A DNA stretch of 64,000 nt from an uncultured Solirubrobacterales bacterium (GCA_963768885.1 CAVYJN010000006.1:373258-437257), one strand, 5' to 3'. Positions 3,955 to 63,137 are shown, counted from the first letter of the stretch. Notes: a model not told the origin generated them from the letters alone. Numbers and translations: made by a program.

Positions 3955-4045
3955 TGGCGCACGCTAACCGCGCTCCGCGAGCGCCGCAATCGGGGCGATT
4001 CCGCGTTCCGGCTGCGTACTTAACCCTGAGCCGGCGCGGGGCCGC

Positions 4046-6772
4046 TCAGACCTGTGGCGAAGGCCCCTCCGGCGGGGCCGCCTCGACCCGCACGCGCGCG
4101 TCGACGATCACGGCTCCCCCGGGGGACACGACGACGGGGTTGCAGTCCATCTCGGCCACCTCGGGGTGCGCCTCGACCATCGCGCTGACCCGCAGCAACA
4201 CGTCCTCGAGCGCCGCCACGTCCGCGCGGGGGGTGCCGCGGAAGCCCTCGAGCAGCGGGAGCGACCGCAGCGAGGCGATCATCGCCCCCGGGTCCCGGTC
4301 GGTCAGCGGGGTGATCCGCACGGCGACGTCCTTCATCACCTCGGCGGTCACGCCGCCGGCGCCGCACGCGATCACGGGCCCGAACAGCGCGTCGTGGGCC
4401 ACGCCGACCAGCATCTCGACGCCGTGCGGGGCCATGCTCTGCACGACGAAGCCGGTCGGCTCGTGTCCGGCCTCGGCGAGCCGGGCCGTCATCGCCTCCG
4501 CCGCCTCGCGCACGGCCTCGGGGCCGGGCAGGTCGACCGCGACGGCGCCGATCTCGGTCTTGTGGACGATGTCCGGCCCGGCGGCCTTGAGCGCGATCGC
4601 GCCCCCGAGCTCGCTCGCCGCGCGCGCCGCGTCGTCGGGCGTGCGGGCCGTCCGGCTCTGCACGAGCGGCAGCCCGTAGCAGCCGAGCAGCCGCTCCACC
4701 TCCTCGGGGGAGAGCCACTCGGCGCTGCGTCCGAGCGCGGAGGCGATCACCGCGCCCGCCTCCTCCGGGCGCAGGTCGTCGAAGTCCGGGATCCGGCCCT
4801 CGGGCGATCCGCGCCACACGCCGTAGTCCACCGTGCGCGCCAGCGCGCGGGCGGCGTCCTCGGGGAACGCGAAGGCGGGGATCGCGCCGTGCTCGGACGT
4901 GAGCTCCGGCGGCTTCCCCTCGCTCGTCATGAACACGGACACGACCGGGAGCGGGCGTCCGAACGAGTCGACCGCCGACCTGATCGCGCGCGCCACGTCC
5001 TCCGTCCGGGTCGCGAGCGGCGGGATGAAGATCGCGACGATCGCGTCCGCGCAGTCGTGGCGGCACAGCACCTCGAGCGCACGGCGGTAGTGCTCGGCCG
5101 GCGCGGTCGCGATCATGTCCAGCGGGTTCGAGAGCGACGCCTCGGCAGGCAGGAACGAGGCCAGCTCCTCGCGTGCGGCGGCCGGCAGCTCGGCCACCTC
5201 GAGCCCGTGTGACTCGCAGGTGTCGGCGCACAGGATCCCCGGGCCGCCCGCGTTGGTCACGATCGCAACGCGCCGGCCGCTGGGCACGGGCTGGTTCGCC
5301 AGCAGGCGGCCGACGTCGAACAGCTCCGCGAGCGTGTCCGTCCTGATCACGCCCGCCTGGTGGAAGAGCGAGTCGACGGTCACGTCCGAAGCCGAGATCA
5401 GGGCGCCCGTGTGCGAGGAAGTCGCGCGCGCCCCTGCGGCGGAGCGCCCGCTCTTGACGGCCACGATCGGCTTCGAGCGCGCCACCCGAGGGGCGATCCG
5501 CGCGAACCTGCGCGGATTTCCGAACGACTCCAGGTAGAGCAGGATCACGCCGGTCTCGTCGTCGGACTCCCAGTACTGGATCAGGTCGTTGCCGGAGATG
5601 TCGGCCTTGTTGCCGACCGACACGAACGACGACAGGCCGAGCCCGAGCGCCTGCGCGTAGTCGATCACGGCGAGGCCGAGGGCGCCGCTCTGGGAGAGGA
5701 ACGCGACGTTGCCGTGGGGCGGGAAGAGCGGCCCGAACATCGCGTCCAGGCGCACTCCGCCGGAGGTGTTCAGGACTCCCAGGCAGTTGGGACCGACGAG
5801 GCGCATGCCGGCCTCGCGGCAGATCGACACCAGCTCGTCCTGGCGCGCCCTGCCCTCGTCTCCGGTCTCGGCGAAGCCCGCGGAGATCACGAGCAGGGCC
5901 GCGACGCCCTTCGCGGCGCACTGCCGCGCGACGTCCGCGACCGCCGGCGCCGGCACCGCGACGACCGCCAGGTCGATGTCGGCGAGGATGTCGCGCACCG
6001 AGGCGAATGCCGGCACGGACTGCACGACCTGCGCGCGCGGGTTGACGGGATACACCGGCCCGTTGAACGCGGTCGCGATCAGGTTGTGGAAGATCTCGCC
6101 GCCCACCGTGCCGCGCTCTCGCGACGCGCCGACCACGGCGACCGACTCCGGCCTCAGGAACTTTCCGACCGCCGCGGTGGCCGCGGTGCGGTCGCGCTCG
6201 TCGAAGCGCTGGAGCGCGTCCTCCGACATCTCGGTCGGGAACTCGATCAGCAGGGAGTCCGGGCTCGAGCGCGTGCGCACCGCGAAGCCGCTCTCGCGGA
6301 ACACCTCCGCCATGCGGTGGTTGTGCGGGAGCACCTCCGCCTCGAACACCGACACCCCGCGCTCCTCGGCCGCCTCGGCGAGGTGGGCGAGCAGGATCGT
6401 GCCGAGCCCGTTGCCCTGGTAGGCGTCGGCGACCTCGAAGGCGACCTCGGCGCGGTCGTCGTCGGGGTCGTCCCGGTTCCACGTCGCGTGGCCGACCACC
6501 GCCTGCCGTGTGCCGCCCAGCGCGAGCAGGCCGAAGCGCAGCTCGTAGTCGACGTCGGCAGCCCACTGCGCCGCCCCTTCGAGGTTCACCCCGAGCGAGA
6601 AGAACCGCAGGCTGCGAGAGTCGGGGGAGAGCCGCTCGAGGAACCGCTTCAGCGCCTCGCGGTCGCCGGGCCGCACGGGGCGGACATGGACCGTCGAGCC
6701 GTCCCGCAGCACGACGTCGGCCTCGCGATGGGCCGGATACGGGGAGCTGGCGCGTGTCGCGTGATCGGGCAC
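4046..6772 (-). CDS. GNAT acetyltransferase fused to an ADP-forming acetyl-CoA synthetase (CoA-binding + ATP-grasp); intact, 908 aa
   Basis: The N-terminal ~190 aa look GNAT-like (EVADAYQGNGLGTILLAHLAEAAEERG). A CoA-binding/succinyl-CoA-ligase-like part follows (PESVAVVGASRERGTVGGEIFHNL...VGPNCLGVLNT...SQSGALG). The C-terminus is ATP-grasp-like (ALKAAGPDIVHKTEIGAVAVDL). Confidence 0.85.
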   Translation of the reverse strand: MPDHATRASSPYPAHREADVVLRDGSTVHVRPVRPGDREALKRFLERLSPDSRSLRFFSLGVNLEGAAQWAADVDYELRFGLLALGGTRQAVVGHATWNRDDPDDDRAEVAFEVADAYQGNGLGTILLAHLAEAAEERGVSVFEAEVLPHNHRMAEVFRESGFAVRTRSSPDSLLIEFPTEMSEDALQRFDERDRTAATAAVGKFLRPESVAVVGASRERGTVGGEIFHNLIATAFNGPVYPVNPRAQVVQSVPAFASVRDILADIDLAVVAVPAPAVADVARQCAAKGVAALLVISAGFAETGDEGRARQDELVSICREAGMRLVGPNCLGVLNTSGGVRLDAMFGPLFPPHGNVAFLSQSGALGLAVIDYAQALGLGLSSFVSVGNKADISGNDLIQYWESDDETGVILLYLESFGNPRRFARIAPRVARSKPIVAVKSGRSAAGARATSSHTGALISASDVTVDSLFHQAGVIRTDTLAELFDVGRLLANQPVPSGRRVAIVTNAGGPGILCADTCESHGLEVAELPAAAREELASFLPAEASLSNPLDMIATAPAEHYRRALEVLCRHDCADAIVAIFIPPLATRTEDVARAIRSAVDSFGRPLPVVSVFMTSEGKPPELTSEHGAIPAFAFPEDAARALARTVDYGVWRGSPEGRIPDFDDLRPEEAGAVIASALGRSAEWLSPEEVERLLGCYGLPLVQSRTARTPDDAARAASELGGAIALKAAGPDIVHKTEIGAVAVDLPGPEAVREAAEAMTARLAEAGHEPTGFVVQSMAPHGVEMLVGVAHDALFGPVIACGAGGVTAEVMKDVAVRITPLTDRDPGAMIASLRSLPLLEGFRGTPRADVAALEDVLLRVSAMVEAHPEVAEMDCNPVVVSPGGAVIVDARVRVEAAPPEGPSPQV

Positions 6773-6834
6773 TGTGGACGGCTGTCGCTCTCCGCGCCAG
6801 CGTAGCGCGCGCCGGCGGCCGTGCCGCGGGCCGG

Positions 6835-7056
6835 CTACTTCGCCGGGCGGGGAGCGCCCTTCACCAAGGACGCGGCGTGGTGTCGCAGCCGCTCGAGGTC
6901 GGCCGTGATCTGGTCGATCGCGGAGCGCGCGCTGCGAAAGCTCTCGGAGACCTCCGAACCCGCCGCGCGCGTGCGCGTGCGGCCGCCCGCGGGCTGCGCG
7001 AGCGCCTTCTTCATCTTCTGCACCGGCCGGTGCGGTTTCTCTTCGGGCTTGCTCAT
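6835..7056 (-). CDS. small hypothetical protein (73 aa, basic/helical)
   Basis: The ORF has a strong SD (GGAGGAGAG) directly upstream of ATG 7056. I recognise no family. Confidence 0.5.
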   Translation of the reverse strand: MSKPEEKPHRPVQKMKKALAQPAGGRTRTRAAGSEVSESFRSARSAIDQITADLERLRHHAASLVKGAPRPAK

Positions 7057-7084
7057 CTCTCCTCCGAGGCGGGGAACGATATCC

Positions 7085-7291: not shown

Positions 7292-7408
7292 GGGTCACCT
7301 CCGACACTCGATGGCCGCAACCTATGTCCCCGCCGGCGGACCGGCATCGGTGGCTATAGCTGCAACGGCTAAGTACTTCTCCCGGATAGATCGACCCGCG
7401 GGCGATGC

Positions 7409-11531: not shown

Positions 11532-12270
11532 ATGCCCGACCCGAGACCGGTGGGTGATGGCCTGCTCGGCGTCGCGGCCGAGCATGCGACCGTGCGCGTG
11601 CCGGTCGCCCGGCCGTCGCAGTCGGTGGGGGACGTGCGCTCCGCGCTCGTCGGCCAGGTCCTCGACTCGGCCGACGACGTCGCGGTGCTGGACGACCACG
11701 CGCTCGTGGGGGTCGTGCCGATCGAGCGCCTGCTGGCGGCGCGCGGGGATGCGCGCATCGCCGAGGTCATGGACCCCGACCCGCCGGTCGTCGAGCCGGG
11801 CGTCGACCAGGAGGTCGTGGCCTGGAGCATGGTCCGCCGCAGCGAGTCGAGCATCGCGGTCGTAGACGCGGACGGGCGCTTCGCCGGCCTGATCCCGCCC
11901 CACCGGATGCTCGCCGTGCTGCTCGCCGAGCACGACGAGGACCTCGCGCGCCTGGGCGGCTTCATGGCCGGCAGCGAGCGCGCGCGCAGCGCGGCCGAGG
12001 AGGATGTCAGGCAGCGCCTCTGGCACCGGCTGCCGTGGCTGCTGATCGGGCTGCTGGCGCGACGCGGTCGGCACCCAGACCGAGGCGGTCGTGATCCGCG
12101 GGCTGTCCGTGGGCGTGACGCTGCGCCCGATCGTCGCGATGGCGCTGCCCTGGGCCTTCCAGCGGGCGGGCAGCGACCCCGCGTTCGGGTCGGGCCCGCT
12201 CGCGACCGTGATCCAGGACCTGCTGTCGATCGCGGTCTACCTTGCGATCGCGACCCTGATCGCGACCTAG
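11532..12270 (+). pseudogene. mgtE: MgtE-type magnesium transporter remnant: CBS pair retained, TM domain frameshifted and internally deleted
   Basis: The CBS region and the plug-helix motif (EEDVRQRLWHRLPWLLIGLL) read in the frame of ORF 11532. After ~12057 sense is lost. MgtE TM pieces reappear in another frame from 12070 (GTQTEAVVIRGLSVGVTLRP / IVAMALPWAFQRAGSDPAFGSGPLATVIQDLLSIAVYLAIATLIAT, stop 12268-12270). Only ~67 aa of TM domain remain, against the ~180 aa expected. Confidence 0.75.
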
Positions 12271-12291
12271 AATGCGGTCGAGGTCCTGACG

Positions 12292-12894
12292 ATGGAGAAC
12301 GGTCACCGCAGCGTCACGATTCCGACCGACGCGCCGGTCTGGAAGCACTTCTTCACGGTCGCGCCGCTCGTGATCGTGGGGAGCCGCGAGCCCGACGGCG
12401 GCCACGACCTCGCCCCCAAGCACATGGCGATGCCGCTCGGGTGGCAGAACTACTACTGCTTCGTGTGCAGCCCGCGCCACGCGACCCAGCGCAACATCCA
12501 GGCGCGCCCGGAGTTCACCGTCAGCTTCCCGCGCGCGAGCCAGATCGTGGAGACCAGCATGGCGGCGGCCCCGCGCGCGGACGACAGCTCGAAGCCGAGC
12601 CTCGCTGCGGTCGAGACGTTCCCCGCCTCGACGGTCGACGGCGTGCTCGTGAAGGACGCCTACCTGTGGCTCGAGTGCCGGCTCGAGCGCATCGTGGACG
12701 GGTTCGGCGAGAACAGCCTGATCGTGGGCGAGGTCGTGGCCGCCCGGGTCGACGAGCGCGCGCTGCGGGCATCGGACAGCGACGACGGCGACGTGATCCA
12801 CGGATCGCCGCTGCTCGCCTACCTCAGCCCGGGGCGGTTCGCCGCGGTCGGCGACAGCTACTCGTTCCCGTTCCCGGTCGACATCCGGATCTAG
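12292..12894 (+). CDS. flavin reductase-like / FMN-binding split-barrel domain protein
   Basis: This 200-aa ORF has FFTVAPLVIVGSREPDGGHDLAPKHMAMPLG...LWLECRLERIVDGFGENSLIVGEVV, a pattern typical of the flavin reductase domain. Confidence 0.65.
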   Translation: MENGHRSVTIPTDAPVWKHFFTVAPLVIVGSREPDGGHDLAPKHMAMPLGWQNYYCFVCSPRHATQRNIQARPEFTVSFPRASQIVETSMAAAPRADDSSKPSLAAVETFPASTVDGVLVKDAYLWLECRLERIVDGFGENSLIVGEVVAARVDERALRASDSDDGDVIHGSPLLAYLSPGRFAAVGDSYSFPFPVDIRI

Positions 12895-12907
12895 TGGCCG
12901 GGCTCTA

Positions 12908-14068
12908 GTGGCTCGATCGAGCGCGACGGCGATCCTCGCGGGCCTGCGCGAGCGCGAGCAGGCGATGGCCGACCTGCTCGCGCGACTCGCGCTCGCGGAG
13001 TCGCCGTCGCTCGAGCCCGCGGCCCAGCGGCAGGCGGCGGAGATCCTCTCGGAGGAGCTCGCCGGCCTCGGCTTCGGCGTCGAGCGGCTGGCCGGCGGGA
13101 GCTCGGGCGACCACCTGCTGGCCGAGCGCGGCGGCGCGGACGCAGGCCCGCGCCAGCTCCTGCTCGGCCACCTCGACACGGTCTGGCCCGTCGGGACCGT
13201 GGACCGGATGCCGGTCAGGGTCGAGGGCGGGCGCATCAGCGGGCCCGGGGTCTACGACATGAAAGGGGGCCTGGTGCAGATGCTGTTCGCGCTGCGCGTG
13301 CTGCGCGACCTCGGGCTCGAGCCCGAGGCGCGGCCGGTCGTGTTCGTGAACAGCGACGAGGAGATCGGCAGCCCCAGCTCCGCCGAGCAGATCGGGCGGC
13401 TCGCGCGCTCCGCGGTGCGCGCGTTCGTGCTCGAGCCCTCGTTCGGGCCCTTCGGGAAGCTCAAGACCGCGCGCAAGGGCGTCGGGCGCTTCACCCTGCA
13501 CATCCAGGGGCGCGCGAGCCACGCGGGCCTCGACCCCGAGCAGGGCGTGAGTGCGGTGCTCGAGGCCTCGCACCAGATCCAGCGCCTCTTCGAGTTGAAC
13601 GACCGCGAGCGCGGCGTCACCGTCAACGTCGGCACGATCGACGGCGGCCTGCGCCCGAACGTCGTGGCCCCCGAGGTGACGGCGGAGGTCGACGCGCGGG
13701 TGCTCCACGACGAGGACGCGAGCAGGCTGGAGGCGGCGATCCTGGCGCTCGAGCCCGTGCAGGAGGGGATCACGATCGAGATCGAGGGCGGCTTCGGGCG
13801 ACCGCCGCTCGAGCGGACCCCGCGCAACCGCGAGCTGTGGGAGGCGGCGCGGGAGGCCGCCGGCGCGCTCGGGATCCCCCTCGACGAGGCGACGGTCGGG
13901 GGCGCCTCCGACGGCAACCTCACGAGCCGGCACACGGCGACGCTCGACGGTCTCGGGCCCGTCGGCGAGGGCGCGCACGCCCCCGACGAGTACGTTTCGC
14001 TGTCGCAGATGCCGGAGCGCGCCGCTCTGCTCGCGCTGCTCGTCATGATGCCCGCCGGCGGGCGCTGA
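12908..14068 (+). CDS. M20 family metallopeptidase (carboxypeptidase G2-like)
   Basis: LLLGHLDTVWPVGT, VFVNSDEEIGSPSS, a GRASHAGLDPEQG dimerisation-domain region, and C-terminal GGASDGN...GPVGEGAHAPDEYV. Confidence 0.85.
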   Translation: MARSSATAILAGLREREQAMADLLARLALAESPSLEPAAQRQAAEILSEELAGLGFGVERLAGGSSGDHLLAERGGADAGPRQLLLGHLDTVWPVGTVDRMPVRVEGGRISGPGVYDMKGGLVQMLFALRVLRDLGLEPEARPVVFVNSDEEIGSPSSAEQIGRLARSAVRAFVLEPSFGPFGKLKTARKGVGRFTLHIQGRASHAGLDPEQGVSAVLEASHQIQRLFELNDRERGVTVNVGTIDGGLRPNVVAPEVTAEVDARVLHDEDASRLEAAILALEPVQEGITIEIEGGFGRPPLERTPRNRELWEAAREAAGALGIPLDEATVGGASDGNLTSRHTATLDGLGPVGEGAHAPDEYVSLSQMPERAALLALLVMMPAGGR

Positions 14069-18193: not shown

Positions 18194-18318
18194 CGTCCCG
18201 CCCTCCGGAGGAAGGTACGGGCCGGGGGGCGCGCCTGCCTCCGTGGAGACTGCGGATCGGGTGCGGTGGTGAATACGCATGCGGCACGGAGTGCCGCTGT
18301 CTAGCTTGGGAAACGAGG

Positions 18319-36197: not shown

Positions 36198-36201
36198 CGC
36201 A

Positions 36202-36226: not shown

Positions 36227-36283
36227 TCGTGCCGCATAATCGCCGGCCGAAGCGCCAGAACCTACGGAAATGGGAGTAGCGAA

Positions 36284-37827
36284 ATGCGTGTGTCGACGTA
36301 CGGGTCGCGCGGGGACGTGGAACCGACCGAGCATGCGGTGGTGATCGCCGGAGGAGGTCCGACGGGGCTGATGTTGGCGGGCGAGTTGGCGTTGGCGGGG
36401 GTCGACGTCGCCATTGTCGAGCGGCGCGCCGGCCAGGATCTCCCCGGCGTCGCGCGCAGGCGGTCTGCACTCACGCACCATCGAGGTTCTCGATCAGCGC
36501 GGAATCGCCGATCGGTTCCTCTCGCAGGGACAGGTGGCCCAGGTCCAGGGCTTCGCCGGGAGCCGGTTGGACATCAGCGACTTTCCCACCCGGCATCCCT
36601 ACGGGCTCGGGCTGTGGCAGAACCACATCGAGCGCATACTGGCCGGCTGGGTCGGCGAGCTGGCGGTGCCGATCTATCGCGGACGTCGAGGTGACCGGTT
36701 TCGCGCAGGACGACACCGGCGTCGACGTCGAGCTGTCCGACGGCCAGTCGCTGCGGGCGGAATATCTCGTCGGGTGCGACGGAGGACGCAGTCTGATCCG
36801 CAAAGCAGCCGGCATCGAGTTCCCCGGGTGGGATCCGACGACCAGCAGCCCTGATCGCCGAGGTCGAGATGGCCGAGGAGCCGGAATTGGGCATCCGACC
36901 GACGCCCTCGGCATCCATGCCTTCGGCAGGTTGGAGTACGAGATCCGCGACGGCGAGGTGGTCTACAAGGATGAGGGACCGGTACGGGTCATGGTGACCG
37001 AAGAGCACGTCGGAGCCACGAGCGAACCCACCCTGCGCGATCTCAGCGAGGCGCTCATCGCCGTATACGGGACCGATTACGGGATCCACAGTCCCACCTG
37101 GATCTCCAGGTTCACCGATATGACCCGGCAGGCCGCGTCCTACCGCGACAGACGGGTGCTGCTGGCCGGCGACGCCGCACACGTGCATTCCCCGGTCGGT
37201 GGACAGGGCCTCAACACCGGTGTGCAGGATGCGGTGAATCTGGGGTGGAAGCTGGCCCAGGTGGTCAACCGGACATCGCCGGAAAGCCTCCTGGATACCT
37301 ACCACGCCGAGCGCCACCCGGTCGCCGCCCGCGTGCTGCGCAACACGATGGCGCAAGTCGCGCTCAGCCGCCCGCCGACGAGCGCATCGAAGGCCTTGCG
37401 CGACACCGTGTCCGAGCTGCTGAGCATGGACGAGCCGCGCAAGCGGTTCGCCGCGATGTTGTCCGGTCTGGACATTCATTACGACCTCGGCGAGGGACAC
37501 CCGCTGCTCGGACGCCGCATGCCCGATCTCGACCTGGTCACCGCCAACGGCCCGCTGCGGGTCTTCACCCTGCTGCACGATGCCCGGCCGGTGCTGCTCA
37601 ACCTCGGTGAGCCCGGCGGCTTCGACATCACTCCATGGGCAGATCGGGTTCAGTTGATCGACGCCAAATACGTTGGCACGTGGGAGCTTCCGGCACTCGG
37701 GGCGGTCACTGCTCCCACCGCCGTGTTGATTCGGCCCGACGGATATGTGGCCTGGGTGGGAGGCCCAGCCCAGGTGGGGCTCACCGACGCGCTGACCACC
37801 TGGTTCGGACCGCCTGCTGCGGCGTAG
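36284..37827 (+). pseudogene. group-A FAD-dependent monooxygenase (Rox/aromatic-hydroxylase-like), multiple frameshifts, lower GC than its surroundings
   Basis: AVVIAGGGPTGLMLAGELALAGVDVAIVERR (frame of ORF 35378..). GLHSRTIEVLDQRGIADRFL...WQNHIERILAGWVGELAVPIYRG (frame of 36414..). YLVGCDGGRSLIRKAAGIEFPGW...LLAGDAAHVHSPVGGQGLNTGVQDAVNLGWKL...LIRPDGYVAWVG (frame of 36691..). A further double shift lies around 36845-36900, where IAEVEMAEEPELGIRP is readable only out of frame. Confidence 0.8.
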
Positions 37828-39875: not shown

Positions 39876-40052
39876 GACGTGTCTCCCTTGGAGTTGGAGG
39901 ATTGAGTCACCGATTCTCGGGCGGCCGCGCGGAGTCGGGCATCGGGGATTGGCCGACGCCGGCATCGTAGAAACCCCCGATGGGGCGGATGCGCGCCGGG
40001 TCTAGGCTGACGCGGACCGTGCCCCCGGGACCCGATAGCTGATGCCCAGGGG

Positions 40053-42807
<2,755 letters not shown>

Positions 42808-42861
42808 TTTCCGCCGACGCGGCGGCGGAGGAACGCCGATGGCGCGTGGGTTCGCGCCGGA

Positions 42862-42867
42862 TACCTT
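42862..42867 (+). promoter_or_regulatory. candidate -10 (TACCTT) for a leaderless M50 protease mRNA
   Basis: TACCTT, then 6 nt, then ATG 42874. There is no SD. Confidence 0.25.
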
Positions 42868-45593: not shown

Positions 45594-45681
45594 CGCGGGT
45601 ACGTACTTTCCACGGCATCAACGGCGGGGGAACTCCGATGGAGCCGCCGCCGATCGCCAATACGGTCTTTCCCGAACGGCG

Positions 45682-47167: not shown

Positions 47168-49419
47168 GCGCGAGCCGCGCGGCGCGCGACGAGCGCGCCC
47201 GTGGCGGCCGCAAGCCCCACGAGCGCGGCCGCCGCGAGCGCGACTCCGCCCGGGGCGGGCGGGCTTCCCAGCTCGGGGCCGATGCCGGCGCCGCGCCCGA
47301 CCGCCTCCAGCATCAGGTCGGCGGCGAGCAGCCCGGCGGGCACCCCCAGCAACACCGCGGCGATTGCGGTCGCGGTCGTGCCGACGGCCACGCTCCAGAC
47401 GACCTGCCGCGGGGTGAAGCCGATCGTCTTGAGCACGCCCACGTCGCGGATCCGCTCGCGAATCCCGAGCACCGTCGCCGCGAGCAGGTTCACGACCGCG
47501 AGCGCCAGCACGAGCGCGCTCAGCGCGTAGAACGCGAACCTGAACGCGTCGAAGTCCCCGACGTCGGTGTCCCGGACCTGCACGGAGCCGCCGGCGGCCG
47601 AGAGCCGGCGCGCGACGGCCGACCTGTCCGCTCCGGGCGTGACGCGCACGAAGTAATCGCCGGGGGCGGCCGCGGGCTCGACCGTGCGCAGGCCGGCGAG
47701 CGTGATCTGGGCGATCTCACCGGAGTCCTCCGTCTCCTGGTATCGCCCGACGATGCGCAGGTCGAGCCGTCGCCCGCCGACCTCCAGCGGCAGCGGGTCG
47801 CCGACCTCAAGATGGAGCAGGCGCAGCAGGCCGTAGCCCGCGACGGCCTCGCTTGCCGTGCGCGGCATCCGGCCCTCCCGCACGACGAAGCCGCCCCGCC
47901 GCAGGTCGCCGCCGAGCGCGCGCACGAGGAACGTCGCATCGCCGACGGCGCCCCGCCGGTCGGTCGCCGTGTACCAGTCCCGCACGCCCGGTTGCGCGGC
48001 GAGCGTTCGCGCGACGGCGTCGGCGGGCGCGTCCCCGGCGTCGACGACGACGTCGAACGGGTCTCCGGCGAGCGCGGGCCGGTCGACGATCTCGTCGACC
48101 GTGCGGTCCATCGCGAGCGTGGCGACTATCGCGATCACGGTCACGGCGAGCGTGGCGATCGACAGCCAGGCGCGCAGCGGTCGCGCCGCGACATCCTTCA
48201 GGCCGACGACCGTCGGCGGGCGCAGCCCCAGGCGGACGGCGAGGCCGGCGAGGCGCGAAGGCCGGGCCGAGACAGGCGACGCTCCCTGCGTGATCGCGCG
48301 GCTGGCGGGTATGCGTCCGGCTCGCCAGGCGGGCAGCACCGTCGCGGCGCACACGATCGCCAGCACTGCGGCAACCGCGATGAACACCGTGCCGATCGTG
48401 ACCGGGGCACGGCCGCCGCCGAGCACCTCCGCCACGTCGAGCTCGAGGCTCGGCGCCAGCAGGAGGCCCGCGGTCACGCCGAGCACCGCGCCGCCCGCCG
48501 CGACGATCAGGTTCTCCCCGAGCACGATCATCGTGAGCGTGCCCGGTGTGAACCCGAGCGCCTTCAGGATGCCGAGCTCACGGTAGGTCGCGAGCACGCG
48601 GGCGCTGACCGCGCTCAGGATCACGAGGCCGGCGGCGACCAGCAGGAACACGCCGAACGAGGCCAGGAAGGCGGCGAAGAACCGGTTCAGCCCGAGCGCG
48701 TCCCCGCGGGTGTCCTTCCAGTCCAGCACGTGCGTCACGCCGCGCTCGTGCGCGCGCTGGATGCGCGACTCGAACGCGCCGACGGCGGCGGGCTTCGCGA
48801 TCCTGACGAGCAGCATGGACTCGGCCCGGCGCGGGTCGAGCCGGTGGAGCACCGCGGCCGGGGCCCACACCGTCGCCGAGGAGCAGTCGGGATAGAAGCA
48901 ATCGAGCATGTCGAGCGCCGTGCCCACGACGCGCACACCGGCCTTGCCACCGTTCCCGTCCAGGACGAGGCGGTCGCCGGGCCCGATGCCTTCCTCCAGC
49001 GCGAAGCTGCGCTCCACGACGACCTCGCGCGCGCCGCCCGCTCTCAGCCACCGTCCGTCGTGCAGCAGCGGGGTGGCGACCGCGGGGCGCCGCCGGGTCG
49101 CGGCGCGGACGTCGACGTCGTCGATCGGGCGGCCGCGGTGGACGACCGAGGTGTCGAACAGGATCGCCGAGGGTCCCGCGGCCTGCACGACCTGCGGGTC
49201 GTCGCGAATCCGCCGCATCGTGGCCCGGTCCCCGAAGAGCGCCACGTGAGCGCCGTTCGCGCGTGCGAACGACTCGTCCCAGCGCTGCTCGGCGCCTTCC
49301 TGCTGTGCGAGCCCCGCGGTGATGCCGGCCGCGGCAACCGCGACGACCACCATCAGGATCACCGCCTGGGGCCGCCGGCGCCTCAGGTCCCCGGCGGCCG
49401 CACGCCAGGCCGCACGCAT
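47137..49419 (-). CDS. ABC transporter permease, double FtsX-domain (MacB-like)
   Basis: 760 aa from ATG 49419, which shares one base with the ATPase stop (TGATG). It has two FtsX 4-TM modules with large extracytoplasmic loops. Confidence 0.85.
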   Translation of the reverse strand: MRAAWRAAAGDLRRRRPQAVILMVVVAVAAAGITAGLAQQEGAEQRWDESFARANGAHVALFGDRATMRRIRDDPQVVQAAGPSAILFDTSVVHRGRPIDDVDVRAATRRRPAVATPLLHDGRWLRAGGAREVVVERSFALEEGIGPGDRLVLDGNGGKAGVRVVGTALDMLDCFYPDCSSATVWAPAAVLHRLDPRRAESMLLVRIAKPAAVGAFESRIQRAHERGVTHVLDWKDTRGDALGLNRFFAAFLASFGVFLLVAAGLVILSAVSARVLATYRELGILKALGFTPGTLTMIVLGENLIVAAGGAVLGVTAGLLLAPSLELDVAEVLGGGRAPVTIGTVFIAVAAVLAIVCAATVLPAWRAGRIPASRAITQGASPVSARPSRLAGLAVRLGLRPPTVVGLKDVAARPLRAWLSIATLAVTVIAIVATLAMDRTVDEIVDRPALAGDPFDVVVDAGDAPADAVARTLAAQPGVRDWYTATDRRGAVGDATFLVRALGGDLRRGGFVVREGRMPRTASEAVAGYGLLRLLHLEVGDPLPLEVGGRRLDLRIVGRYQETEDSGEIAQITLAGLRTVEPAAAPGDYFVRVTPGADRSAVARRLSAAGGSVQVRDTDVGDFDAFRFAFYALSALVLALAVVNLLAATVLGIRERIRDVGVLKTIGFTPRQVVWSVAVGTTATAIAAVLLGVPAGLLAADLMLEAVGRGAGIGPELGSPPAPGGVALAAAALVGLAAATGALVARRAARAQVADVLRAE

Positions 49420-50213
49420 CAGCGTTGCGCGACGACGCGTCCGTCTTCCATCCGCACCTGGCGCCGCGCTGCGGCCGACACCCGCGCGTCGTGCGTGACC
49501 AGCACGATCGTCTGGCCGGCCGCGTTGCACTCCGCGAGCAGCGCGATCACCTCGCCGGTCGCCTCGCTGTCGAGGTTCCCGGTCGGCTCGTCGGCCAGCA
49601 GGACGCTGGGCTCGTTTGCGAGGGCGCGGGCCAGCGCGACTCGCTGCTGCTCCCCGCCGGAGAGCTCCGCGGGCGCCTTGCGCGCATCGTCGGCCCCCAG
49701 GCCGAGCCGCTCCAGCAGCTCGCTTCGCCGGGCCCGTGCCGCGGCGGGCGAGCGGCCCGTCAGCAGCATCGGCAGCTCGACGTTGTCCGCCACGCTCAGG
49801 TTCGCCACGAGGTTGAAGAACTGGAACACGTAGCCGACGCGGCGGCGTCGCAGCACGGCTCGCTTCGCCTCCGACAGCAGGTCGATCCGCTCACCTGCCA
49901 GCATCACGGTCCCGCCGCTCGGGACGTCGAGCCCCCCGAGCAGATGCAGGAGCGTCGACTTGCCGCACCCGCTCGGGCCCGTGATCGCGATCATCTCTCC
50001 CGGATCGATCGACAGCGTCACGCCCCGCAGCGCCTCGACCGCCGCCCCTGCGGTGTCGTAGGCCTTGCGCAGGTCGCGTGTCGCGGCGATCGGGCGGCTG
50101 CCCCCGCCGGCGTCGTCACGGTGTTCCGCGGGCCCGGCGGAATGCTGCACGGCGTCGTTAACTCGCAGCGGGAGGGGGGATCGGCCGGGTCGTCGTGGCG
50201 GACTGCGGCTCAC
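49419..50213 (-). CDS. ABC transporter ATP-binding protein (MacB/LolD type)
   Basis: Walker A GPSGCGKSTLL, signature [15 protein letters not shown], Walker [12 protein letters not shown]. The start is uncertain (50213 or GTG 50150). Confidence 0.85.
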   Translation of the reverse strand: MSRSPPRRPGRSPLPLRVNDAVQHSAGPAEHRDDAGGGSRPIAATRDLRKAYDTAGAAVEALRGVTLSIDPGEMIAITGPSGCGKSTLLHLLGGLDVPSGGTVMLAGERIDLLSEAKRAVLRRRRVGYVFQFFNLVANLSVADNVELPMLLTGRSPAAARARRSELLERLGLGADDARKAPAELSGGEQQRVALARALANEPSVLLADEPTGNLDSEATGEVIALLAECNAAGQTIVLVTHDARVSAAARRQVRMEDGRVVAQR

Positions 50214-50355: not shown

Positions 50356-50421
50356 GGCTTCCCGAGCCTAAGCCGGGGGTGTTTGGCCTGCATCGGTGTG
50401 AAATACGGAGTTGGAGGGCGG

Positions 50422-51333
50422 TCATCCGCCGCGCGGCACGACGAGGATGCTCGTGGGGCACGTGCGGACCAGCCCCGACGAGACCCCGCCGAGCAGTACC
50501 CGGCGCACCGGGCCGTACTGCCGCGATCCGACCACCAGCAGGTCGATGCCGTTCTCGGCGGCGCTCGCCAGCGCGTCCACGGCCGACCCTTCGAGCACGT
50601 AGCGCTGCACGTCGACGCCCGGCCGTGTCGCCGCCGCCGCTTCGTTCAGCTTCCGCTCGAGCCGCTCGCGGGCGTACTTCGACACCTCGGTCGGGTCGTA
50701 CCCCGCCGGAACGGAGTCGATCCCGAAGATCATCTCCGGCTCGTGGACGGCGAGCAGGCGCAGGGATGCTCCCGTGCGGCGCGCCACGAACTCGGCGTGT
50801 CGCAGCGCGACCGCCGACTCCTCCGAGCCGTCGAACGCGCACCCGACCACCTTCAGCGCGCGATCGGCGCGCTCGCGGAACCCCGCGGGCGCCACCGCGA
50901 CCGCACACGGCGCGCCGTAAAGCAGCCGTTCGGCGACGGATCCGGCCAGCACGCGGCCGATCGCGCCGCGGTGGCTCGACCCGACGATCAGCGCGTCGGC
51001 CTGGGCCGACTCCGCCAGCTCGTGCAGGCCCTGCGCAGCCGAGCGCGCGCCGACCACCCGTGTCTGTGCGCGGTCGTCCTCGCCCACCGCCGCCGACAGC
51101 ATCTCGGCCGCCTCGCGGCGCATCGCCTCCTCGCGGTCGGCGGTGCCGGGCGCGTAGGGAAACTCGTGTGGCACGACCGCGGCCACCAGCAGCTCGGCGC
51201 CCGCGGCATCCGCGAGCAGCCGCGCGAGCGCGAGCCCGTCGGCGGCCCGCTCGCTGCCGTCATAGCCCGCGACCAGCGTCGCGTAGCGCGGGACCGCCTC
51301 GGCCGGGGGCTGGGAGGTCTCGGTCACGCTCAT
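50422..51333 (-). CDS. tandem-domain universal stress protein (Rv2005c-like)
   Basis: Start at ATG 51333 (MSVTETSQPP). The two USP repeats contain ADALIVGSSHRGAIGRVLAGSVAERLLYGAPCAVAVAP and IDLLVVGSRQYGPVRRVLLGGVSSGLVRTCPTSILVVP. Confidence 0.85.
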   Translation of the reverse strand: MSVTETSQPPAEAVPRYATLVAGYDGSERAADGLALARLLADAAGAELLVAAVVPHEFPYAPGTADREEAMRREAAEMLSAAVGEDDRAQTRVVGARSAAQGLHELAESAQADALIVGSSHRGAIGRVLAGSVAERLLYGAPCAVAVAPAGFRERADRALKVVGCAFDGSEESAVALRHAEFVARRTGASLRLLAVHEPEMIFGIDSVPAGYDPTEVSKYARERLERKLNEAAAATRPGVDVQRYVLEGSAVDALASAAENGIDLLVVGSRQYGPVRRVLLGGVSSGLVRTCPTSILVVPRGG

Positions 51334-51569
51334 GTGGCGATCCGATCCGGCGAGGGGTGCGCGGCGGGCGACGGCCCGCCGGGCAGCGGCACGGAGCTCA
51401 TCTGCGCTTGCCGTACATCCGCAGATGCGACTCCGTGCCTCTGGCCAACCGGGAGATGCTCGCGATGCTGCGTGCATGCTCCATGCACGGACACTATGCG
51501 ACGCCGGCCCGCGCGCGGAACCGCGCAAGCCCGAGAAGTTGATGCGTAGAACTCCGCAGCCGGCGCGAT

Positions 51570-53171: not shown

Positions 53172-53422
53172 GCCTTGTACGCCTCCGCGATCGCGGGCAC
53201 CTCTGCAGCGTAGACCCGGGGCGCCGCGTCGATTCCGTAGATCCCACGGATGATGGGCCAGCGTTCACCCGGATTTGCGCGGGGCCCGGGCGCGCTAGCG
53301 TCAACGCCTGTCATGTCCACGGAGCAAATCACGCGGCGCAAGCTCCACACCCCGTCGCGGGGTGGTCGCACACAGCGCGACGGCCGGCTCGACGGGGCGA
53401 TCGCTGCCGCCCGTCGGCGCGT

Positions 53423-53428
53423 TAGGCT
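53423..53428 (+). promoter_or_regulatory. candidate -10 (TAGGCT) for a leaderless response-regulator mRNA
   Basis: TAGGCT, then 7 nt, then GTG 53436. There is no SD. Confidence 0.2.
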
Positions 53429-53435
53429 CCGCACC

Positions 53436-54092
53436 GTGAGCGATCGGCCCGTCGAAGGAAGCGACTCGATCAGGATCGTGGTCGCGGACGATCACGCCGT
53501 GGTGCGCAGCGGCCTGCGGATGCTGCTCGACTCCGAGTCGGGCTTCGAGGTCGTGGCCGAGGCCGGCGACGTCGACTCGGCGCGGCGCTACGTGCGCGGC
53601 CATCACCCGGCTGTGCTGGTGCTCGACCTGAACATGCCGGGCGACTCGAGCCTCGAGGCGATCCCCGGGCTCAGGGAGGAGTTCCCGGAGACCCAGATCG
53701 TGGTGCTCACCATGCAGGACGACCCGGCCTTCGCCCGTGAGGCGATGAGGGCCGGGGCGCTCGGCTACGTGTTGAAGGAGGCCGCCGACGCCGAGCTCGT
53801 CGAGGCCGTGCGCAGCGCGGCCGACGGGCGCACCTACCTGCACCCGCAGCTTGGCGCCCGGCTCGCGGCCGAACCGGAGCGCGACGGCCCGCGCAGCGAG
53901 CTGAGCGACCGCGAGATCGAGGTGCTCCGGCTGATCGCGCTCGGTCACACCAACAGCGAGATCGCACAGCAGCTCTTCCTCAGCGTGCGGACGGTCGAGT
54001 CGCACCGCGCGCACATCCAGCAGAAGCTTGGGCTTTCGACGCGCGCCGAGCTGGTCAAGTACGCGCTCGACAACAAGCTGCTGGAAGCCTGA
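53436..54092 (+). CDS. NarL/FixJ-family response regulator (REC + LuxR HTH), DevR/DosR-like
   Basis: IRIVVADDHAVVRSGLRMLL...PAVLVLDLNMPGDSS (phospho-Asp context)...QIVVLTMQDD, followed by LSDREIEVLRLIALGHTNSEIAQQLFLSVRTVESHRAHIQQKLG. Confidence 0.9.
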   Translation: MSDRPVEGSDSIRIVVADDHAVVRSGLRMLLDSESGFEVVAEAGDVDSARRYVRGHHPAVLVLDLNMPGDSSLEAIPGLREEFPETQIVVLTMQDDPAFAREAMRAGALGYVLKEAADAELVEAVRSAADGRTYLHPQLGARLAAEPERDGPRSELSDREIEVLRLIALGHTNSEIAQQLFLSVRTVESHRAHIQQKLGLSTRAELVKYALDNKLLEA

Positions 54093-54230: not shown

Positions 54231-54680
54231 ATGAGTTCGATGGACCGGGTCGAAGGAAGCTATCTGGCGCCTTCGCTGGAGCACGCGTTGGTATCGGACG
54301 CGATGCGCTCGGAGATACTGACCTGCCCACCCGATGCGAGCCTCCGCACCGTCGCGAGGATGATGGCCGCCGAGCACGTCCACTGCGCGGTCGTCTCGGA
54401 CGGCGGCGGGCGCGGGCGGGGGACGGCCGCCTGGGGCATCGTCTCCGACATGGACCTGCTGCGCGCGGCGCGCGAGGACGTGGACGAGCGGACCGCATCC
54501 TGGGCGGCGGTGTCCGAGTTCCTGTCGGTGGCGCCTGGCGAGCCGCTCGAGCGCGCCGTGCAGATGATGCTCGAGCACAACGTGACTCATCTGGTGGTCG
54601 TCGATCCGGCGAACGACAAGGCCGTCGGCGTGCTCTCGACGCTCGACATCGCGGGAGTGCTGGCCTGGGGGCTCGCCTAG
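54231..54680 (+). CDS. CBS-pair protein (Hrp1/Rv2626c-like)
   Basis: ATG 54231 follows GAGGAGG. There are two CBS motifs (DAMRSEILTCPPDASLRTVARMMAAEHVHCAVV...; VSEFLSVAPGEPLERAVQMMLEHNVTHLVVVD). Confidence 0.8.
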   Translation: MSSMDRVEGSYLAPSLEHALVSDAMRSEILTCPPDASLRTVARMMAAEHVHCAVVSDGGGRGRGTAAWGIVSDMDLLRAAREDVDERTASWAAVSEFLSVAPGEPLERAVQMMLEHNVTHLVVVDPANDKAVGVLSTLDIAGVLAWGLA

Positions 54681-54684: not shown

Positions 54685-56397
54685 CTAGCCGGTCTTCGTG
54701 GCGGGCAGCGCGGGCTCCGGGATCAGGGCTCGCACGAGCGTGCCTTTCCCCTCCTCGGACTCGATTTCGACCGTGCCCCCGACCAGCGTGACCCGCTCGC
54801 GCATCCCGACCAGCCCGAACCCGGCAGCGGGAACGCTCGGGTCGAAGCCGCGCCCGTCGTCGCGGATCGTCACGGTCACCCCGCCGTCCTGCCTCAGCAG
54901 CTCGATCTCGAGGTGACCGGCGCCGGCGTGCTTCGCGATGTTCGTGAGGGCCTCCTGCACGAGCCGGTAGACGGTGCTCTCCACCTCGGGCGTGAGGCGT
55001 TCGGCTTCCTCGAGCGACAGCGCGATGTTGGTCTCGACGGTCATGCCCTCGCTGGTCGCCATCCGCTGGGCCAGCGTCTCGATCGCCGGGACGAGCCCGA
55101 TCTCGTCGAGCGCGGGCGGGCGCAGCTCGACGATCAGCGAGCGCAGGTTCGCGATCTCGATGCCGATCTGCTGGACGGCCTCGCGCACGGAATGCCGGAG
55201 GCGCTCGGGGTCCTCGCGCCGTAGCGCGGAGGAAAGCAGCATCCGCAGGCCGCCGAGCCCCTGAAGCGTCTCGTCGTGCAGCTCGCGCGCCCAGCGGCGG
55301 CGCTCCTGCTCGGAGGCCTCGATGCTGTCGCGCAGCCGGTGCTCGGCGACCGACGTTGCGGTGTGCACGCTCACCGCGGCCGTCGCCGCGAAGGACTCGA
55401 GCAGCCGCGCGTCCTCGGCGCTGAACTCCGGGCCGCCCCGCTTGTCGGCGGCGATCAGGATCCCCACCGATTGCGAGCGGAACACGAGTGGCACCAGCAA
55501 CGCGCTCTCCGCGTGCAGCCCCAGCTCCTGCGACGAGACCATCACGCGGCTCGACAGGTCCGCGACGCGCTCCGGCCGCATCGACTTCAGCACCTGGCCC
55601 GAGATGGACCCCTCGATCGGCACGCGTGTGTCGAGCAACGCGCGCTCGACGTCGCCGGCGATCTCCTGGATCACGAGCTCGCTGCCCTGGACCAGGAGCA
55701 TCGCCGTCCATCGCGCCTCCACCAGCGCCCGCGCGCGCTTCACGACCAGCTCGAGCACCCTCCGGATGTCCGTCTCCCCGTCGAGGGCGCGCATGATCTC
55801 GGTTGCCGCCCGCAGCCGCCGGACAGCCACCTCCAGCGCGGCGCGGCGCTCCTGGGCGTCGCGATAGAGGCGCGCGTTGTCGATCGCGATCGCGGCCCAG
55901 TCGGCGAGGATCACGGCCGAGTTCTCGTCGGCCTGGTCGAACTCCCCGCAGCCCTGCTTCTCCGTGAGGTACAGGTTTCCCCACGCCTCGCCGCGAATCA
56001 CGATCGGAACGCCGAGGAAGCCGTGCATCGGGGGGTGCCCCGGCGGGAAGCCGTAGGAGGCCGGGTGCGAGCCGACGTCGCCGATGCGCAGCGGTCGCGC
56101 ATCGCGGATCAGCTCTCCCAGGACCCCGCGGCCGGTGGGCAGGTCGCCGATCCGTGCGCGCGTCGCGTCGTCGATCCCGAGCGTGATGAAGCGCTCGAGC
56201 TTCGTCCGCGACTCGTCGAGGATCCCGAGCGCGGCGTAGCGCGCGCCGGTCACCTCGCGTGCGGTGTGCAGGACGCGCTCGAGCAGCGACTCCAGGTCCA
56301 GCATCGAGACCAGCGCGCGACCGGCCTCGATGAGGCGCTCCAGACGCTGTGATTCGAGGCTCTGTGCGCCCATCGCCCCGTGATCCTTCGCGTTCAC
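54685..56397 (-). CDS. GAF-GAF-HisKA_3-HATPase sensor histidine kinase, DevS/DosT-like
   Basis: The first GAF contains GRGVLGELIRDARPLRIGDVGSHPASYGFPPGHPPMHGFLGVPIVIRGEAWGNLYLTEK. This closely resembles my recollection of the heme-GAF of DevS, where the proximal His lies in the HPPM segment. A second GAF follows, then the H-box ARELHDETLQGL, and an ATPase domain with N/G boxes. An alternative start is ATG 56373. Confidence 0.9.
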   Translation of the reverse strand: MNAKDHGAMGAQSLESQRLERLIEAGRALVSMLDLESLLERVLHTAREVTGARYAALGILDESRTKLERFITLGIDDATRARIGDLPTGRGVLGELIRDARPLRIGDVGSHPASYGFPPGHPPMHGFLGVPIVIRGEAWGNLYLTEKQGCGEFDQADENSAVILADWAAIAIDNARLYRDAQERRAALEVAVRRLRAATEIMRALDGETDIRRVLELVVKRARALVEARWTAMLLVQGSELVIQEIAGDVERALLDTRVPIEGSISGQVLKSMRPERVADLSSRVMVSSQELGLHAESALLVPLVFRSQSVGILIAADKRGGPEFSAEDARLLESFAATAAVSVHTATSVAEHRLRDSIEASEQERRRWARELHDETLQGLGGLRMLLSSALRREDPERLRHSVREAVQQIGIEIANLRSLIVELRPPALDEIGLVPAIETLAQRMATSEGMTVETNIALSLEEAERLTPEVESTVYRLVQEALTNIAKHAGAGHLEIELLRQDGGVTVTIRDDGRGFDPSVPAAGFGLVGMRERVTLVGGTVEIESEEGKGTLVRALIPEPALPATKTG

Positions 56398-56543
56398 GTC
56401 AGGCTCTGTTCGCGCATCGCCTGTTAAAGCCGGGCATGCTTACGTAGATACTACGGCCAACCATGCGCGGGGGCCAGCGGATGCACGCGCTCCACCGCCG
56501 CGCCTATGCTGATGGAGTCTTAGTAGAGGAAGGGGATCGGGGT

Positions 56544-56990: not shown

Positions 56991-56991
56991 C

Positions 56992-58374: not shown

Positions 58375-58384
58375 GCGCGGGCGA

Positions 58385-61581: not shown

Positions 61582-61660
61582 TTCCGCTCAACTCTATGCG
61601 CGGTCGCCGGCGTGGACATGGGCCCAAGGCCGCAGCGGCGCTCCGTAGAAAACGCGGGGC

Positions 61661-63076: not shown

Positions 63077-63082
63077 ATTTCC

Positions 63083-63088
63083 ATTATG
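63083..63088 (-). promoter_or_regulatory. candidate -10 (CATAAT) giving a leaderless pyk mRNA
   Basis: The minus strand reads CTCATAATGGAAAT-ATG. CATAAT ends 6 nt before ATG 63076, and there is no SD. Confidence 0.3.
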
Positions 63089-63137
63089 AGGTCGCCGTAG
63101 GCGAACTCAGGCTTCAGGTGGGCGACTCGTCCATTCG

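Follow-up and report, generated by a model that had tools for sequence, protein, structure and literature searches.

A tandem CGTAG-type box as the probable operator of a DosR-like regulon in an uncultured Solirubrobacterales bacterium

We analyzed a stretch of 64,000 nucleotides of DNA, referred to here as the window, from an uncultured Solirubrobacterales bacterium (GCA_963768885.1 CAVYJN010000006.1:373258-437257). The window carries an island of genes that, based on Pfam assignments, resembles a dormancy or hypoxia island, and the promoter regions of this island contain a recurrent box. The box is an 18- to 20-bp imperfect dyad, aTCCGTAG-TT-tcCCGCAa, with a strong half (TsCGTAG) and a degenerate half (reverse complement TGCGGGr). 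It is probably the operator of the island's own two-component system, a DevS/DosT-type kinase and a NarL-family regulator. The two proteins are encoded as follows.

Response regulator (candidate binding protein), 53436-54092, plus strand: REC and GerE (NarL/LuxR) domains, recognition helix FLSVRTVESHRAHIQQKLG.
Partner sensor kinase, 54685-56397, minus strand: domain order GAF-GAF-HisKA_3-HATPase.

The G+C content of the window was 73%. The nearest relatives of the regulator were found in Solirubrobacterales/Solirubrobacteraceae metagenome-assembled genomes (MAGs), with 95% identity in one locus (L001) and 70 to 79% identity in 79 others, and we therefore placed the host in the Thermoleophilia rather than in Streptomyces or Mycobacterium. 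The Solirubrobacterales are deep-branching Actinomycetota that are abundant in soil and seldom cultured, and, to our knowledge, their regulation is essentially unstudied.

A reading of the window made from the sequence only (the sequence-only reading) had proposed that a GTAC/GTAG-centered palindrome was the operator of a DevR-like regulator. The box remains the best candidate for the operator of the island's NarL-family regulator, but the palindrome model, its center, and seven of the 17 copies that had been listed had to be abandoned.

Motif discovery around orthologous regulator genes

The sample for motif discovery consisted of 80 Solirubrobacterales loci with orthologous regulator genes, from which 599 short intergenic regions (110 kb) were taken. 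Word counts were compared with an order-4 Markov model, and the top word was used to seed expectation maximization (EM). The window was excluded from the training of the matrix. The most over-represented word, TCCGTAGT, was found 30 times when 4.7 occurrences were expected (p 5e-15), and the words that followed it (CATCCGTA, ATCCGTAG, and CCGTAGTT) were overlapping parts of one motif. The EM motif, GATCCGTAGTTTCCCGCAAC / aTCCGTAGTTtcCCGCAa, had an information content of 16.7 bits and about 137 sites, and 208 of the 257 matches of at least 11 bits in the loci were intergenic. Thus, motif discovery against a background model, which had been suggested as a check on the box, ranked the same motif first around the 80 orthologous regulator genes.

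The matrix was most similar to its own reverse complement when the axis was placed at the center, between columns 9 and 10 (p ~0.013), which indicated a weak dyad with 7-2-7 geometry, TsCGTAG-WW-(c)(y)CCGCA. The candidate operator form that bears the CGTAG core is TGCGTAGAACTCCGCA. The sequence-only reading had placed the center of a palindrome, GGnnAAGT-ACTTnnCC, at GT|AC; the true dyad center lies 3 nucleotides 3' of this point, after GTAG-T. The pattern that had been noticed, CGTA[GC]-N3-4-CC[CG], thus combines the strong left half with the CCGC from the right half.

Two other descriptions of the box were considered and dropped. One was a direct repeat, TCCGTA-N4-yCCGCA, with the 10-bp period of OmpR-type sites; the box works in both orientations, and its reverse-complement similarity is central. 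The other was a -10 element (TAGTTT) with a conserved discriminator; a separate TAnnnT hexamer lies 53.5 bp downstream of the box and is followed by leaderless start codons.

In the window, the loose pattern [CA]GTA[CG]-N3-4-CC[CG] was 4.6-fold denser in intergenic DNA (2.55 per kb) than in coding DNA (0.55 per kb), and its 10 intergenic matches exceeded the 2.1 to 3.8 expected under Markov models of orders 1 to 3 (p <= 0.006). Plain GTAC/GTAG was enriched only about 1.4- to 1.5-fold in intergenic DNA. When hexamers were counted in the window only, CGTAGA (9 versus 1.5 expected) and CCGTAG (9 versus 2.4 expected) were borderline after multiple testing. The matrix from the related loci gave seven matches of at least 11 bits in the window versus 1.9 expected, and all seven were located in intergenic DNA, which makes up 8.6% of the window.

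Promoter architecture

The distance from the box to the promoter was fixed. A TAnnnT hexamer began 62 to 64 nucleotides downstream of matrix column 0 in 80 of the 208 intergenic sites, and no other downstream peak was observed. The start of this hexamer is 53.5 bp from the center of the distal box. The consensus of the -10 hexamer is TAGCnT, and most of the hexamers in the loci were TAGCGT, TAGCTT, or TAGCCT. In 52 of the 98 modules in the 80 loci, an ATG or GTG codon was found 5 to 8 nucleotides after the hexamer. Such a short distance is that of a leaderless mRNA, and the start codon therefore marks the putative +1 position. Leaderless mRNAs appear to be very common among the predicted target genes.

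A weaker second box was located exactly 23 bp downstream of the primary box, with a mean score in the loci of -14 bits compared to a background of -25 bits. The consensus of the second box is GGnnTnnCnCGGATg, with a conserved ..CCGGATG. If the -10 hexamers and the leaderless start codons are taken as guides, the two box centers would lie near -65.5 and -42.5. The box typically occurs as a tandem, helically phased pair of a strong primary and a weak secondary site, 22 to 24 bp apart, as is the case for DevR-type promoters. The spacing to the -10 hexamer was the same whichever way the primary box faced (ratio of the two orientations, 84:14 in the loci and 7:6 in the window), and divergent promoters shared units in which the hexamers were 41 to 43 bp from the box midpoint on each side.

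We defined a composite module as a box, a second box 22 to 24 bp away, and an nAnnnT hexamer at +61 to +65. The window contained 15 such modules compared to 0.6 in simulated sequences (maximum, 2), and it contained 18 two-box units compared to 1.9 in simulated sequences.

Link between the box and the regulator

In the loci, sites were densest over the 1 kb that precedes the regulator gene (0.73 per kb versus about 0.1 per kb), and in 40 of the 78 loci, a site of at least 11 bits lay within 400 nucleotides 5' of this gene. When the first gene behind each module was recorded (n = 90), the regulator gene was the most frequent (19), followed by genes for Pyr_redox_2 oxidoreductases (17) and universal stress proteins (USPs) (16); the corresponding numbers for control genes (n = 90) were 4, 0, and 9.

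We also carried out a scan that was independent of the regulator gene. Specifically, 120 metagenome contigs that contained TCCGTAGTTNNCCGCA were collected by exact pattern, and chance matches in low-G+C contigs served as an internal control. In the high-G+C contigs, GAT[GT] was present at +38/39 in 10 of 45 (about 0.7 expected) and nAnnnT was present at +63 in 11 of 45, whereas neither spacing signal was seen in the low-G+C contigs with TCCGTAGTTNNCCGCA. The genes downstream of the box in the motif-anchored contigs encoded a USP, two CBS proteins, an OsmC protein, and a leaderless regulator. In the contig with this regulator (L194), the protein behind the box is 69% identical to that of the window and has an identical recognition helix.

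The GAF-A domain of the kinase matched the heme domains of DosT (2vzw) and DevS (2w3d) at E ~1e-39 and retained the histidine of the HPPM motif; the signal would be O2, NO, or CO, sensed via heme. In the regulator, the helix SVRTVE[TS]HR[AS]HIQQKL was almost invariant across the 80 orthologues. When the regulator was aligned to DevR (3c3w), the DevR segment EKTVKNYVSRL corresponded to VRTVESHRAHI, and three residues with which DevR contacts DNA were replaced (K179 by R, K182 by E, and N183 by S). These changes are consistent with a different box sequence.

A second -10-like hexamer, TAGGCT, was observed in 53419-53435, located 7 nucleotides 5' of the regulator start codon. Many orthologues have GATACCTTCA at the same position (loci L004, L007, L008, L031, and others). 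This hexamer suggests a leaderless promoter additional to the predicted box-dependent promoter, which is 128 nucleotides upstream in the window. In many orthologues, two boxes feed the putative leaderless promoter of the regulator gene directly.

Two-box units in the window

After duplicates and two coding hits that lacked a -10 hexamer were dropped, 14 units remained in the window, and all 14 were intergenic. These units are predicted to control about 18 promoters, since four of them lie between divergent genes: adhE and the WS/DGAT gene, the HPF gene and the gene at 33598, the dodecin gene and a P-type ATPase gene, and the Rv2004c-like gene and the regulator gene. The units are listed below with their matrix scores and predicted -10 hexamers.

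Unit 1, 189-208, minus strand: primary box CCTGCGTAGTTCGCCGCATG (16.4 bits), weak proximal box 166-185; -10 GATGCT 140-145 (minus); predicted leaderless ATG 133 of a gene that extends past the edge of the window.
Unit 2, 3988-4030, minus strand: primary box 4011-4030 (10.2 bits) with its strong half facing the promoter, proximal box 3988-4007 (AACGCGGAATCGCCCCGATT on the minus strand); -10 TAGCGT 3961-3966 (minus); predicted leaderless ATG 3954 of the PPDK_N (ppsA-like) gene 2098-3954.
Unit 3, 7346-7387, minus strand: primary box 7368-7387 (11.7 bits), weak proximal box 7346-7365; -10 TAGGTT 7319-7324 (minus), then Shine-Dalgarno GGAGG and ATG 7291; the GNAT/ADP-forming acetyl-CoA synthetase-like gene 4046-6772 lies downstream.
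Unit 4, 18239-18281, divergent: boxes 18239-18258 (4.5 bits) and 18262-18281 (6.7 bits); minus side, -10 TACCTT 18212-18217 to adhE (ATG 18193); plus side, -10 TAGCTT 18302-18307 to the WS/DGAT gene (ATG 18319); hexamers 43 and 42 bp from the box midpoint.
Unit 5, 32616-32657, minus strand: primary box 32638-32657 (11.5 bits), proximal box 32616-32635; -10 CAGAAT 32590-32595 (minus) to a 65-amino-acid open reading frame (ORF) with ATG 32545 and the P-type ATPase gene 29836-32301.
Unit 6, 33495-33536, divergent: boxes 33495-33514 (4.1 bits) and 33517-33536 (12.6 bits); minus side, -10 GAGACT 33469-33474 to the long HPF gene 32687-33430; plus side, -10-like GAATGT 33556-33561 to the gene at 33598.
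Unit 7, 34220-34262, plus strand: boxes 34220-34239 (10.1 bits) and 34243-34262 (5.3 bits); -10 CATGAT 34284-34289, Shine-Dalgarno GAAGGAG, and GTG 34320 of the hemerythrin gene ending at 34790.
Unit 8, 39940-39981, divergent, weak: boxes 39940-39959 (1.5 bits) and 39962-39981 (5.6 bits); minus side, -10 GAGAAT 39913-39918 to the dodecin gene (ATG 39875) and RtcB; plus side, -10 TAGGCT 40003-40008 to the frameshifted P-type ATPase gene; hexamers each 42.5 bp from the midpoint.
Unit 9, 42799-42841, plus strand: primary box 42799-42818 (TCTAAGTAGTTTCCGCCGAC, 15.6 bits), proximal box 42822-42841; -10 TACCTT 42862-42867; predicted leaderless ATG 42874 of the M50 protease-CBS gene.
Unit 10, 45598-45640, plus strand: primary box 45598-45617 (9.0 bits), proximal box 45621-45640; -10 TACGGT 45661-45666 to the tandem-USP gene ending at 46880.
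Unit 11, 50392-50435, minus strand: strong box 50392-50411 (12.3 bits) in the proximal position, weak distal box 50416-50435; -10 TAGGCT 50365-50370 (minus) to a small ORF (ATG 50355), the ABC transporter gene 49419-50150, and an FtsX permease gene.
Unit 12, 51518-51560, minus strand: best box of the window, 51541-51560 (GATGCGTAGAACTCCGCAGC, 20.0 bits), proximal box 51518-51537; -10 TAGTGT 51491-51496 (minus); predicted start at about 51484, leading to the tandem-USP gene 50422-51333.
Unit 13, 53232-53275, divergent: primary box 53232-53251 (10.5 bits), weak box 53256-53275; plus side, -10 TAGCGT 53296-53301 to the regulator gene (GTG 53436); minus side, -10 TACGCT 53207-53212 to the Rv2004c-like AAA_33 gene (GTG 53171).
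Unit 14, 61617-61659, minus strand: boxes 61640-61659 (6.8 bits) and 61617-61636 (2.5 bits); -10 TAGAGT 61591-61596 (minus) to an ABC ATPase gene (GTG 61581).

The predicted leaderless starts coincided with the called start codons at 3954 (ppsA-like), 42874 (M50 protease), and 133. The -10 hexamer of unit 13 that leads to the regulator gene implies autoregulation. We considered whether the sites at 53175-53249 could fall in an N-terminal extension of the Rv2004c-like gene, but the open frame contained no start codon upstream of 53171, and the region is intergenic.

A possible variant site was found in the divergent region between the kinase and CBS genes (56442-56454), where a perfect 13-bp palindrome, CGTAGATACTACG, scored 5.5 bits. 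It has a 3-nucleotide center as opposed to the standard 2-nucleotide center, and it is kept in L001 although the flanks diverge. On its 3' side are GGATG (56478-56482) and TATGCT (56505-56510), at spacings that are 1.5 to 3.5 nucleotides above the standard. Footprinting in relatives, another check that had been suggested, was informative in this kinase/CBS region only, because the L001 sequence is too similar to that of the window (85 to 91% identity) and is rearranged.

The 17 strings listed in the sequence-only reading were all present in the window. Four of them were off by 1 nucleotide: the copies read as 18208, 28235, and 33517 begin at 18207, 28236, and 33516, and the copy at 45597 is 19 rather than 20 nucleotides long. 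As judged by the matrix from related genomes, the recurrence of the box in promoter regions was real, and 10 of the 17 copies were supported. The copies at 4014, 7367, 33516, 34223, 42800, 45597, 51544, and 53235 scored at least 9 bits, which places them in the top 0.02% of window positions, and those at 39965 and 56440 were counted as supported at about 5.5 bits each. In the case of 33516 (unit 6), the aligned core is GCGG and not the GTAC that had been emphasized. The remaining seven copies had other explanations or no support: 18207 is the -10 hexamer TACCTT plus the Shine-Dalgarno sequence of adhE, 53208 is the -10 hexamer TACGCT of the Rv2004c-like gene, 53175 is the Shine-Dalgarno sequence of the same gene, 56518 is the Shine-Dalgarno sequence of the CBS gene that starts with ATG 56544, and 28236, 51411, and 63094 received no support from the matrix. 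Conversely, several sites had been overlooked (189-208, 18239-18281, 32638-32657, 50392-50411, and 61640-61659), as had every secondary box. A box in nearly every intergenic region proved to be an overstatement, since, among the 28 intergenic regions that are 40 nucleotides or longer, 14 had a two-box unit. The copy at 7367-7382, which had been singled out as the best, does lie within the primary box of unit 3, but the best box of the window is that of unit 12, whose 16-bp core is symmetric at 6 of 8 positions.

Alternative explanations

Several points weigh against the assignment of the box to the island's regulator. The loci were retrieved via the regulator gene, and therefore any regulon motif that is co-localized with this gene would be enriched in them. 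The pairing of the regulator encoded at 53436-54092 with the box is one that we infer. The regulator matched ChrA (112.1 bits), DevR (105.6 bits), and VraR (101.9 bits) about equally well, so that its sequence by itself does not justify calling it a DevR orthologue. In addition, genes in the window and the loci were called with our own caller based on G+C at the third codon position (GC3), so some starts are uncertain, and the transcription starts used here are predictions from leaderless codons and -10 hexamers. The weak proximal element (..CCGGATG) could be a -35-like element instead of a second operator, and three of the units are built from boxes of less than 7 bits (18239/18262, 39940/39962, and 61617/61640).

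These points leave room for a different binding protein: the box would be a real operator of another transcription factor that controls the island, including the regulator gene, and the DevS-partnered regulator would recognize something else. The co-localization of box and regulator gene is partly built into regulator-anchored loci, binding of the box by the regulator is itself deduced, and in 38 of the 78 loci the 400 nucleotides upstream of the regulator gene were devoid of sites that reach 11 bits. We nonetheless consider this explanation unlikely. A 16- to 18-bp dyad with 7-2-7 geometry and tandem phased pairs near -42.5 and -65.5 are typical of NarL/DosR-type dimers, the regulator gene was the most frequent direct target, and the recognition helix was nearly invariant in the loci that share the motif. 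Moreover, a contig anchored solely on the motif again had the regulator behind the box, and no other factor turned up that recurred with the motif, although no search was aimed at one.

The fixed distance to the -10 hexamer, and the position of the proximal CCGGATG at about -38 to -32, near that of a -35 element, also raised the idea that the box and CCGGATG are UP-like and -35-like elements recognized by polymerase with an alternative sigma factor. This is very improbable, because the primary box has no fixed polarity and keeps its distance from the -10 hexamer in either orientation, and divergent promoters share the units symmetrically, which is not expected of polar polymerase elements. Furthermore, the gap of about 20 nucleotides between CGGATG and the -10 hexamer is too long for a sigma-70-type -35/-10 pair, and the -10 hexamers are ordinary actinobacterial TAnnnT sequences. 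We give hardly any credence to the view that the box is a by-product of composition, produced by AT-richer intergenic DNA, -10 hexamers, and the TAG or TAC of stop and Tyr codons. It is true that GTAC/GTAG by itself showed only the small enrichment given above, that coding GTAGA is mostly the antisense of xTC-TAC codons, and that at least four of the seven copies that failed the matrix are -10 or Shine-Dalgarno sequences. However, the enrichment survived Markov models of orders 1 to 4 that were built from the intergenic DNA itself; the 18-nucleotide motif, the 23-bp pairing, and the fixed -10 distance were far above simulation; and these features recurred in independent high-G+C metagenome contigs but not in low-G+C chance matches. 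On balance, the island's own kinase and regulator remain the probable users of the box.

Comparison with known systems

The Dev boxes bound by DevR (DosR) of Mycobacterium tuberculosis are 18 to 20 bp long (TTSGGGACTWWAGTCCCSAA), with the consensus GGGACTWWAGTCCC, in which G5 and C7 are essential. The sequence-only reading had noted that the box differed from the mycobacterial one, and this observation held: with up to two mismatches allowed, GGGACnnnnGTCCC / GGGACNNNNGTCCC had 48 matches in the whole window versus 84 expected, and the sequences TsCGTAG-WW and GGGACT-WW are unrelated. The arrangement of the boxes is nevertheless similar. No DevR promoter of M. tuberculosis has fewer than two Dev boxes in tandem, and from a conserved primary box DevR is recruited, in a cooperative manner, to a secondary site of poor conservation (PMC3177182). 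The divergent tgs1-Rv3131 promoters have their Dev boxes at -42.5 and -63.5, where correct helical phasing is essential (PMC3177182). A 2026 cryo-electron microscopy study found that the DosR dimer touches region 4 of sigma-A and the alpha subunits (PMC13486717).

The likenesses to M. tuberculosis DosR include a sensor with a DevS/DosT-type heme-GAF domain and a NarL-family regulator, palindromic boxes with a WW center, tandem primary and secondary boxes near -42.5 and -63.5/-65.5, some of which are common to divergent promoters, and a regulator gene that appears to be self-regulated. The gene content also resembles that of the DosR regulon, with USPs, a tgs-type WS/DGAT, an Rv2004c-like protein, a ctpF-like ATPase, HPF, CBS proteins, and an Rv0571c-like phosphoribosyltransferase (PRTase)-hydrolase. 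The differences, apart from the box and the replaced DNA-contact residues, are a center-to-center spacing of 23 bp rather than 21 bp, a kinase gene located outside the regulator operon, many target mRNAs that are predicted to be leaderless, and a host from a deep-branching uncultured soil lineage.

A second system for comparison is OsdK/OsdR (SCO0203/0204) of Streptomyces coelicolor, which has the 16-nucleotide palindromic box AGGGCCGATCGGCCCT, and OsdR binds Dev boxes in vitro (PMC5069765). Like OsdR, the system described here is a DosR-like system of a nonmycobacterial actinobacterium, stress genes (USPs, pyruvate phosphate dikinase, and others) surround the regulator gene, many sites lie near this gene, and the regulator appears to be self-regulated. 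Unlike in OsdR, the recognition helix of the window regulator is different. The box AGGGCCGATCGGCCCT had one match in the window, with three mismatches, versus 1.5 expected and no copy in 53172-53435, and the pattern GGGNCNNNNGNCCC had two matches in the window versus 5.3 expected.

NarL sites consist of heptamers in a 7-2-7 arrangement, TACYYMT-NN-AKRRGTA. The box shares with them the 16-bp inverted repeat and the 7-2-7 geometry for a dimer of GerE domains. A resemblance to the NarL heptamer TACYYMT had been claimed, but the claimed match was out of register: the half-site is T-s-C-G-T-A-G, which agrees with TACYYMT at T1 and C3 only, so the geometry alone is common to the two.

Other features of the island

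The genes of the island that were identified are as follows.

Several tandem USPs and an Rv2004c-like AAA_33 protein.
CBS proteins, adhE, and WS/DGAT.
PPDK_N/ppsA-like enzymes and Pyr_redox_2 oxidoreductases.
Long HPF, hemerythrin, dodecin, and RtcB.
Two P-type ATPases, a PRTase-hydrolase, and an M50 protease.

The 65-amino-acid ORF behind unit 5 (32348-32545, minus strand; MSDARTNKLQQRL...) had no Pfam match and lies directly behind the predicted box-dependent promoter. The small ORF behind unit 11 (about 50355, minus strand), which is likewise directly behind a predicted box-dependent promoter, begins with MPYLHCPQCRL and has the look of a zinc ribbon.

Some genes in the window were not contained in a single reading frame. 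The P-type ATPase gene at 40053-42803 (plus strand) is spread over at least three reading frames, and its GC3 frame signal switches repeatedly; its domains are split into E1-E2_ATPase (40072-41277), Hydrolase (40898-42175), and Cation_ATPase_C (42015-42800). It is either a pseudogene or the result of indel errors in the assembly. The FAD_binding_3 aromatic-ring hydroxylase at 35378-37824 (plus strand) is in two frames, with the N-terminal GxGxxG part at the end of ORF 35378-36691 and the remainder in 36691-37824, and there is likely a frameshift around 36300-36700. In the 458-amino-acid ORF 11532-12908 (plus strand), the CBS domain is confined to the region near the N terminus. This ORF overlaps a flavin reductase gene (12292-12894) in a different frame, and the coding signal shifts frame at about 12000-12090.

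The segments with the regulator, kinase, CBS, and pyk genes are syntenic between the window and L001. However, L001 lacks the CBS gene 54240-54680, and the order of the upstream genes differs, which indicates that the island has been rearranged between close relatives. Rfam and tRNA scans of the window gave no matches.

Discussion

The system described here is a DosR-like regulon in the Solirubrobacterales that has the same type of sensor, the same promoter grammar, and much of the same gene content as the mycobacterial system but a different operator sequence and recognition helix. In the mechanism that we propose, dimers of the phosphorylated regulator would occupy the strong box and would draw a second dimer, by cooperative binding, to the weak box, which would take the place of the -35 element. 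The bound dimers would then act as class II-like activators, rather than as repressors, of RNA polymerase at promoters with a TAGCnT -10 hexamer, and many of the products would be leaderless mRNAs. At four of the units, two divergent promoters would be driven simultaneously.

A broader and more tentative idea is that an ancient hypoxia and dormancy regulon has stayed under a heme-GAF DevS-type sensor, with its promoter grammar and much of its gene content kept, and that the helix and the operator have been wholly re-specified; we regard this as possible, without yet leaning toward it. Our literature search found no paper that linked DosR/DevR with the Thermoleophilia. If this idea is true, the regulon would be a clean natural case of coevolution between a regulator and its operator under a conserved activation mechanism, and DosR-like control of dormancy would extend to abundant uncultured soil bacteria. 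The system also offers a natural comparison for activation by M. tuberculosis DosR, because the spacing and position of the boxes are alike and the recognition code is different; such a comparison separates the requirements of activation geometry from those of DNA recognition. With the operator and its approximately 18 promoters defined, a regulon for persistence that depends on oxygen or redox state in the Solirubrobacterales becomes directly open to testing, and hundreds of MAGs can be annotated for this regulon with the matrix.

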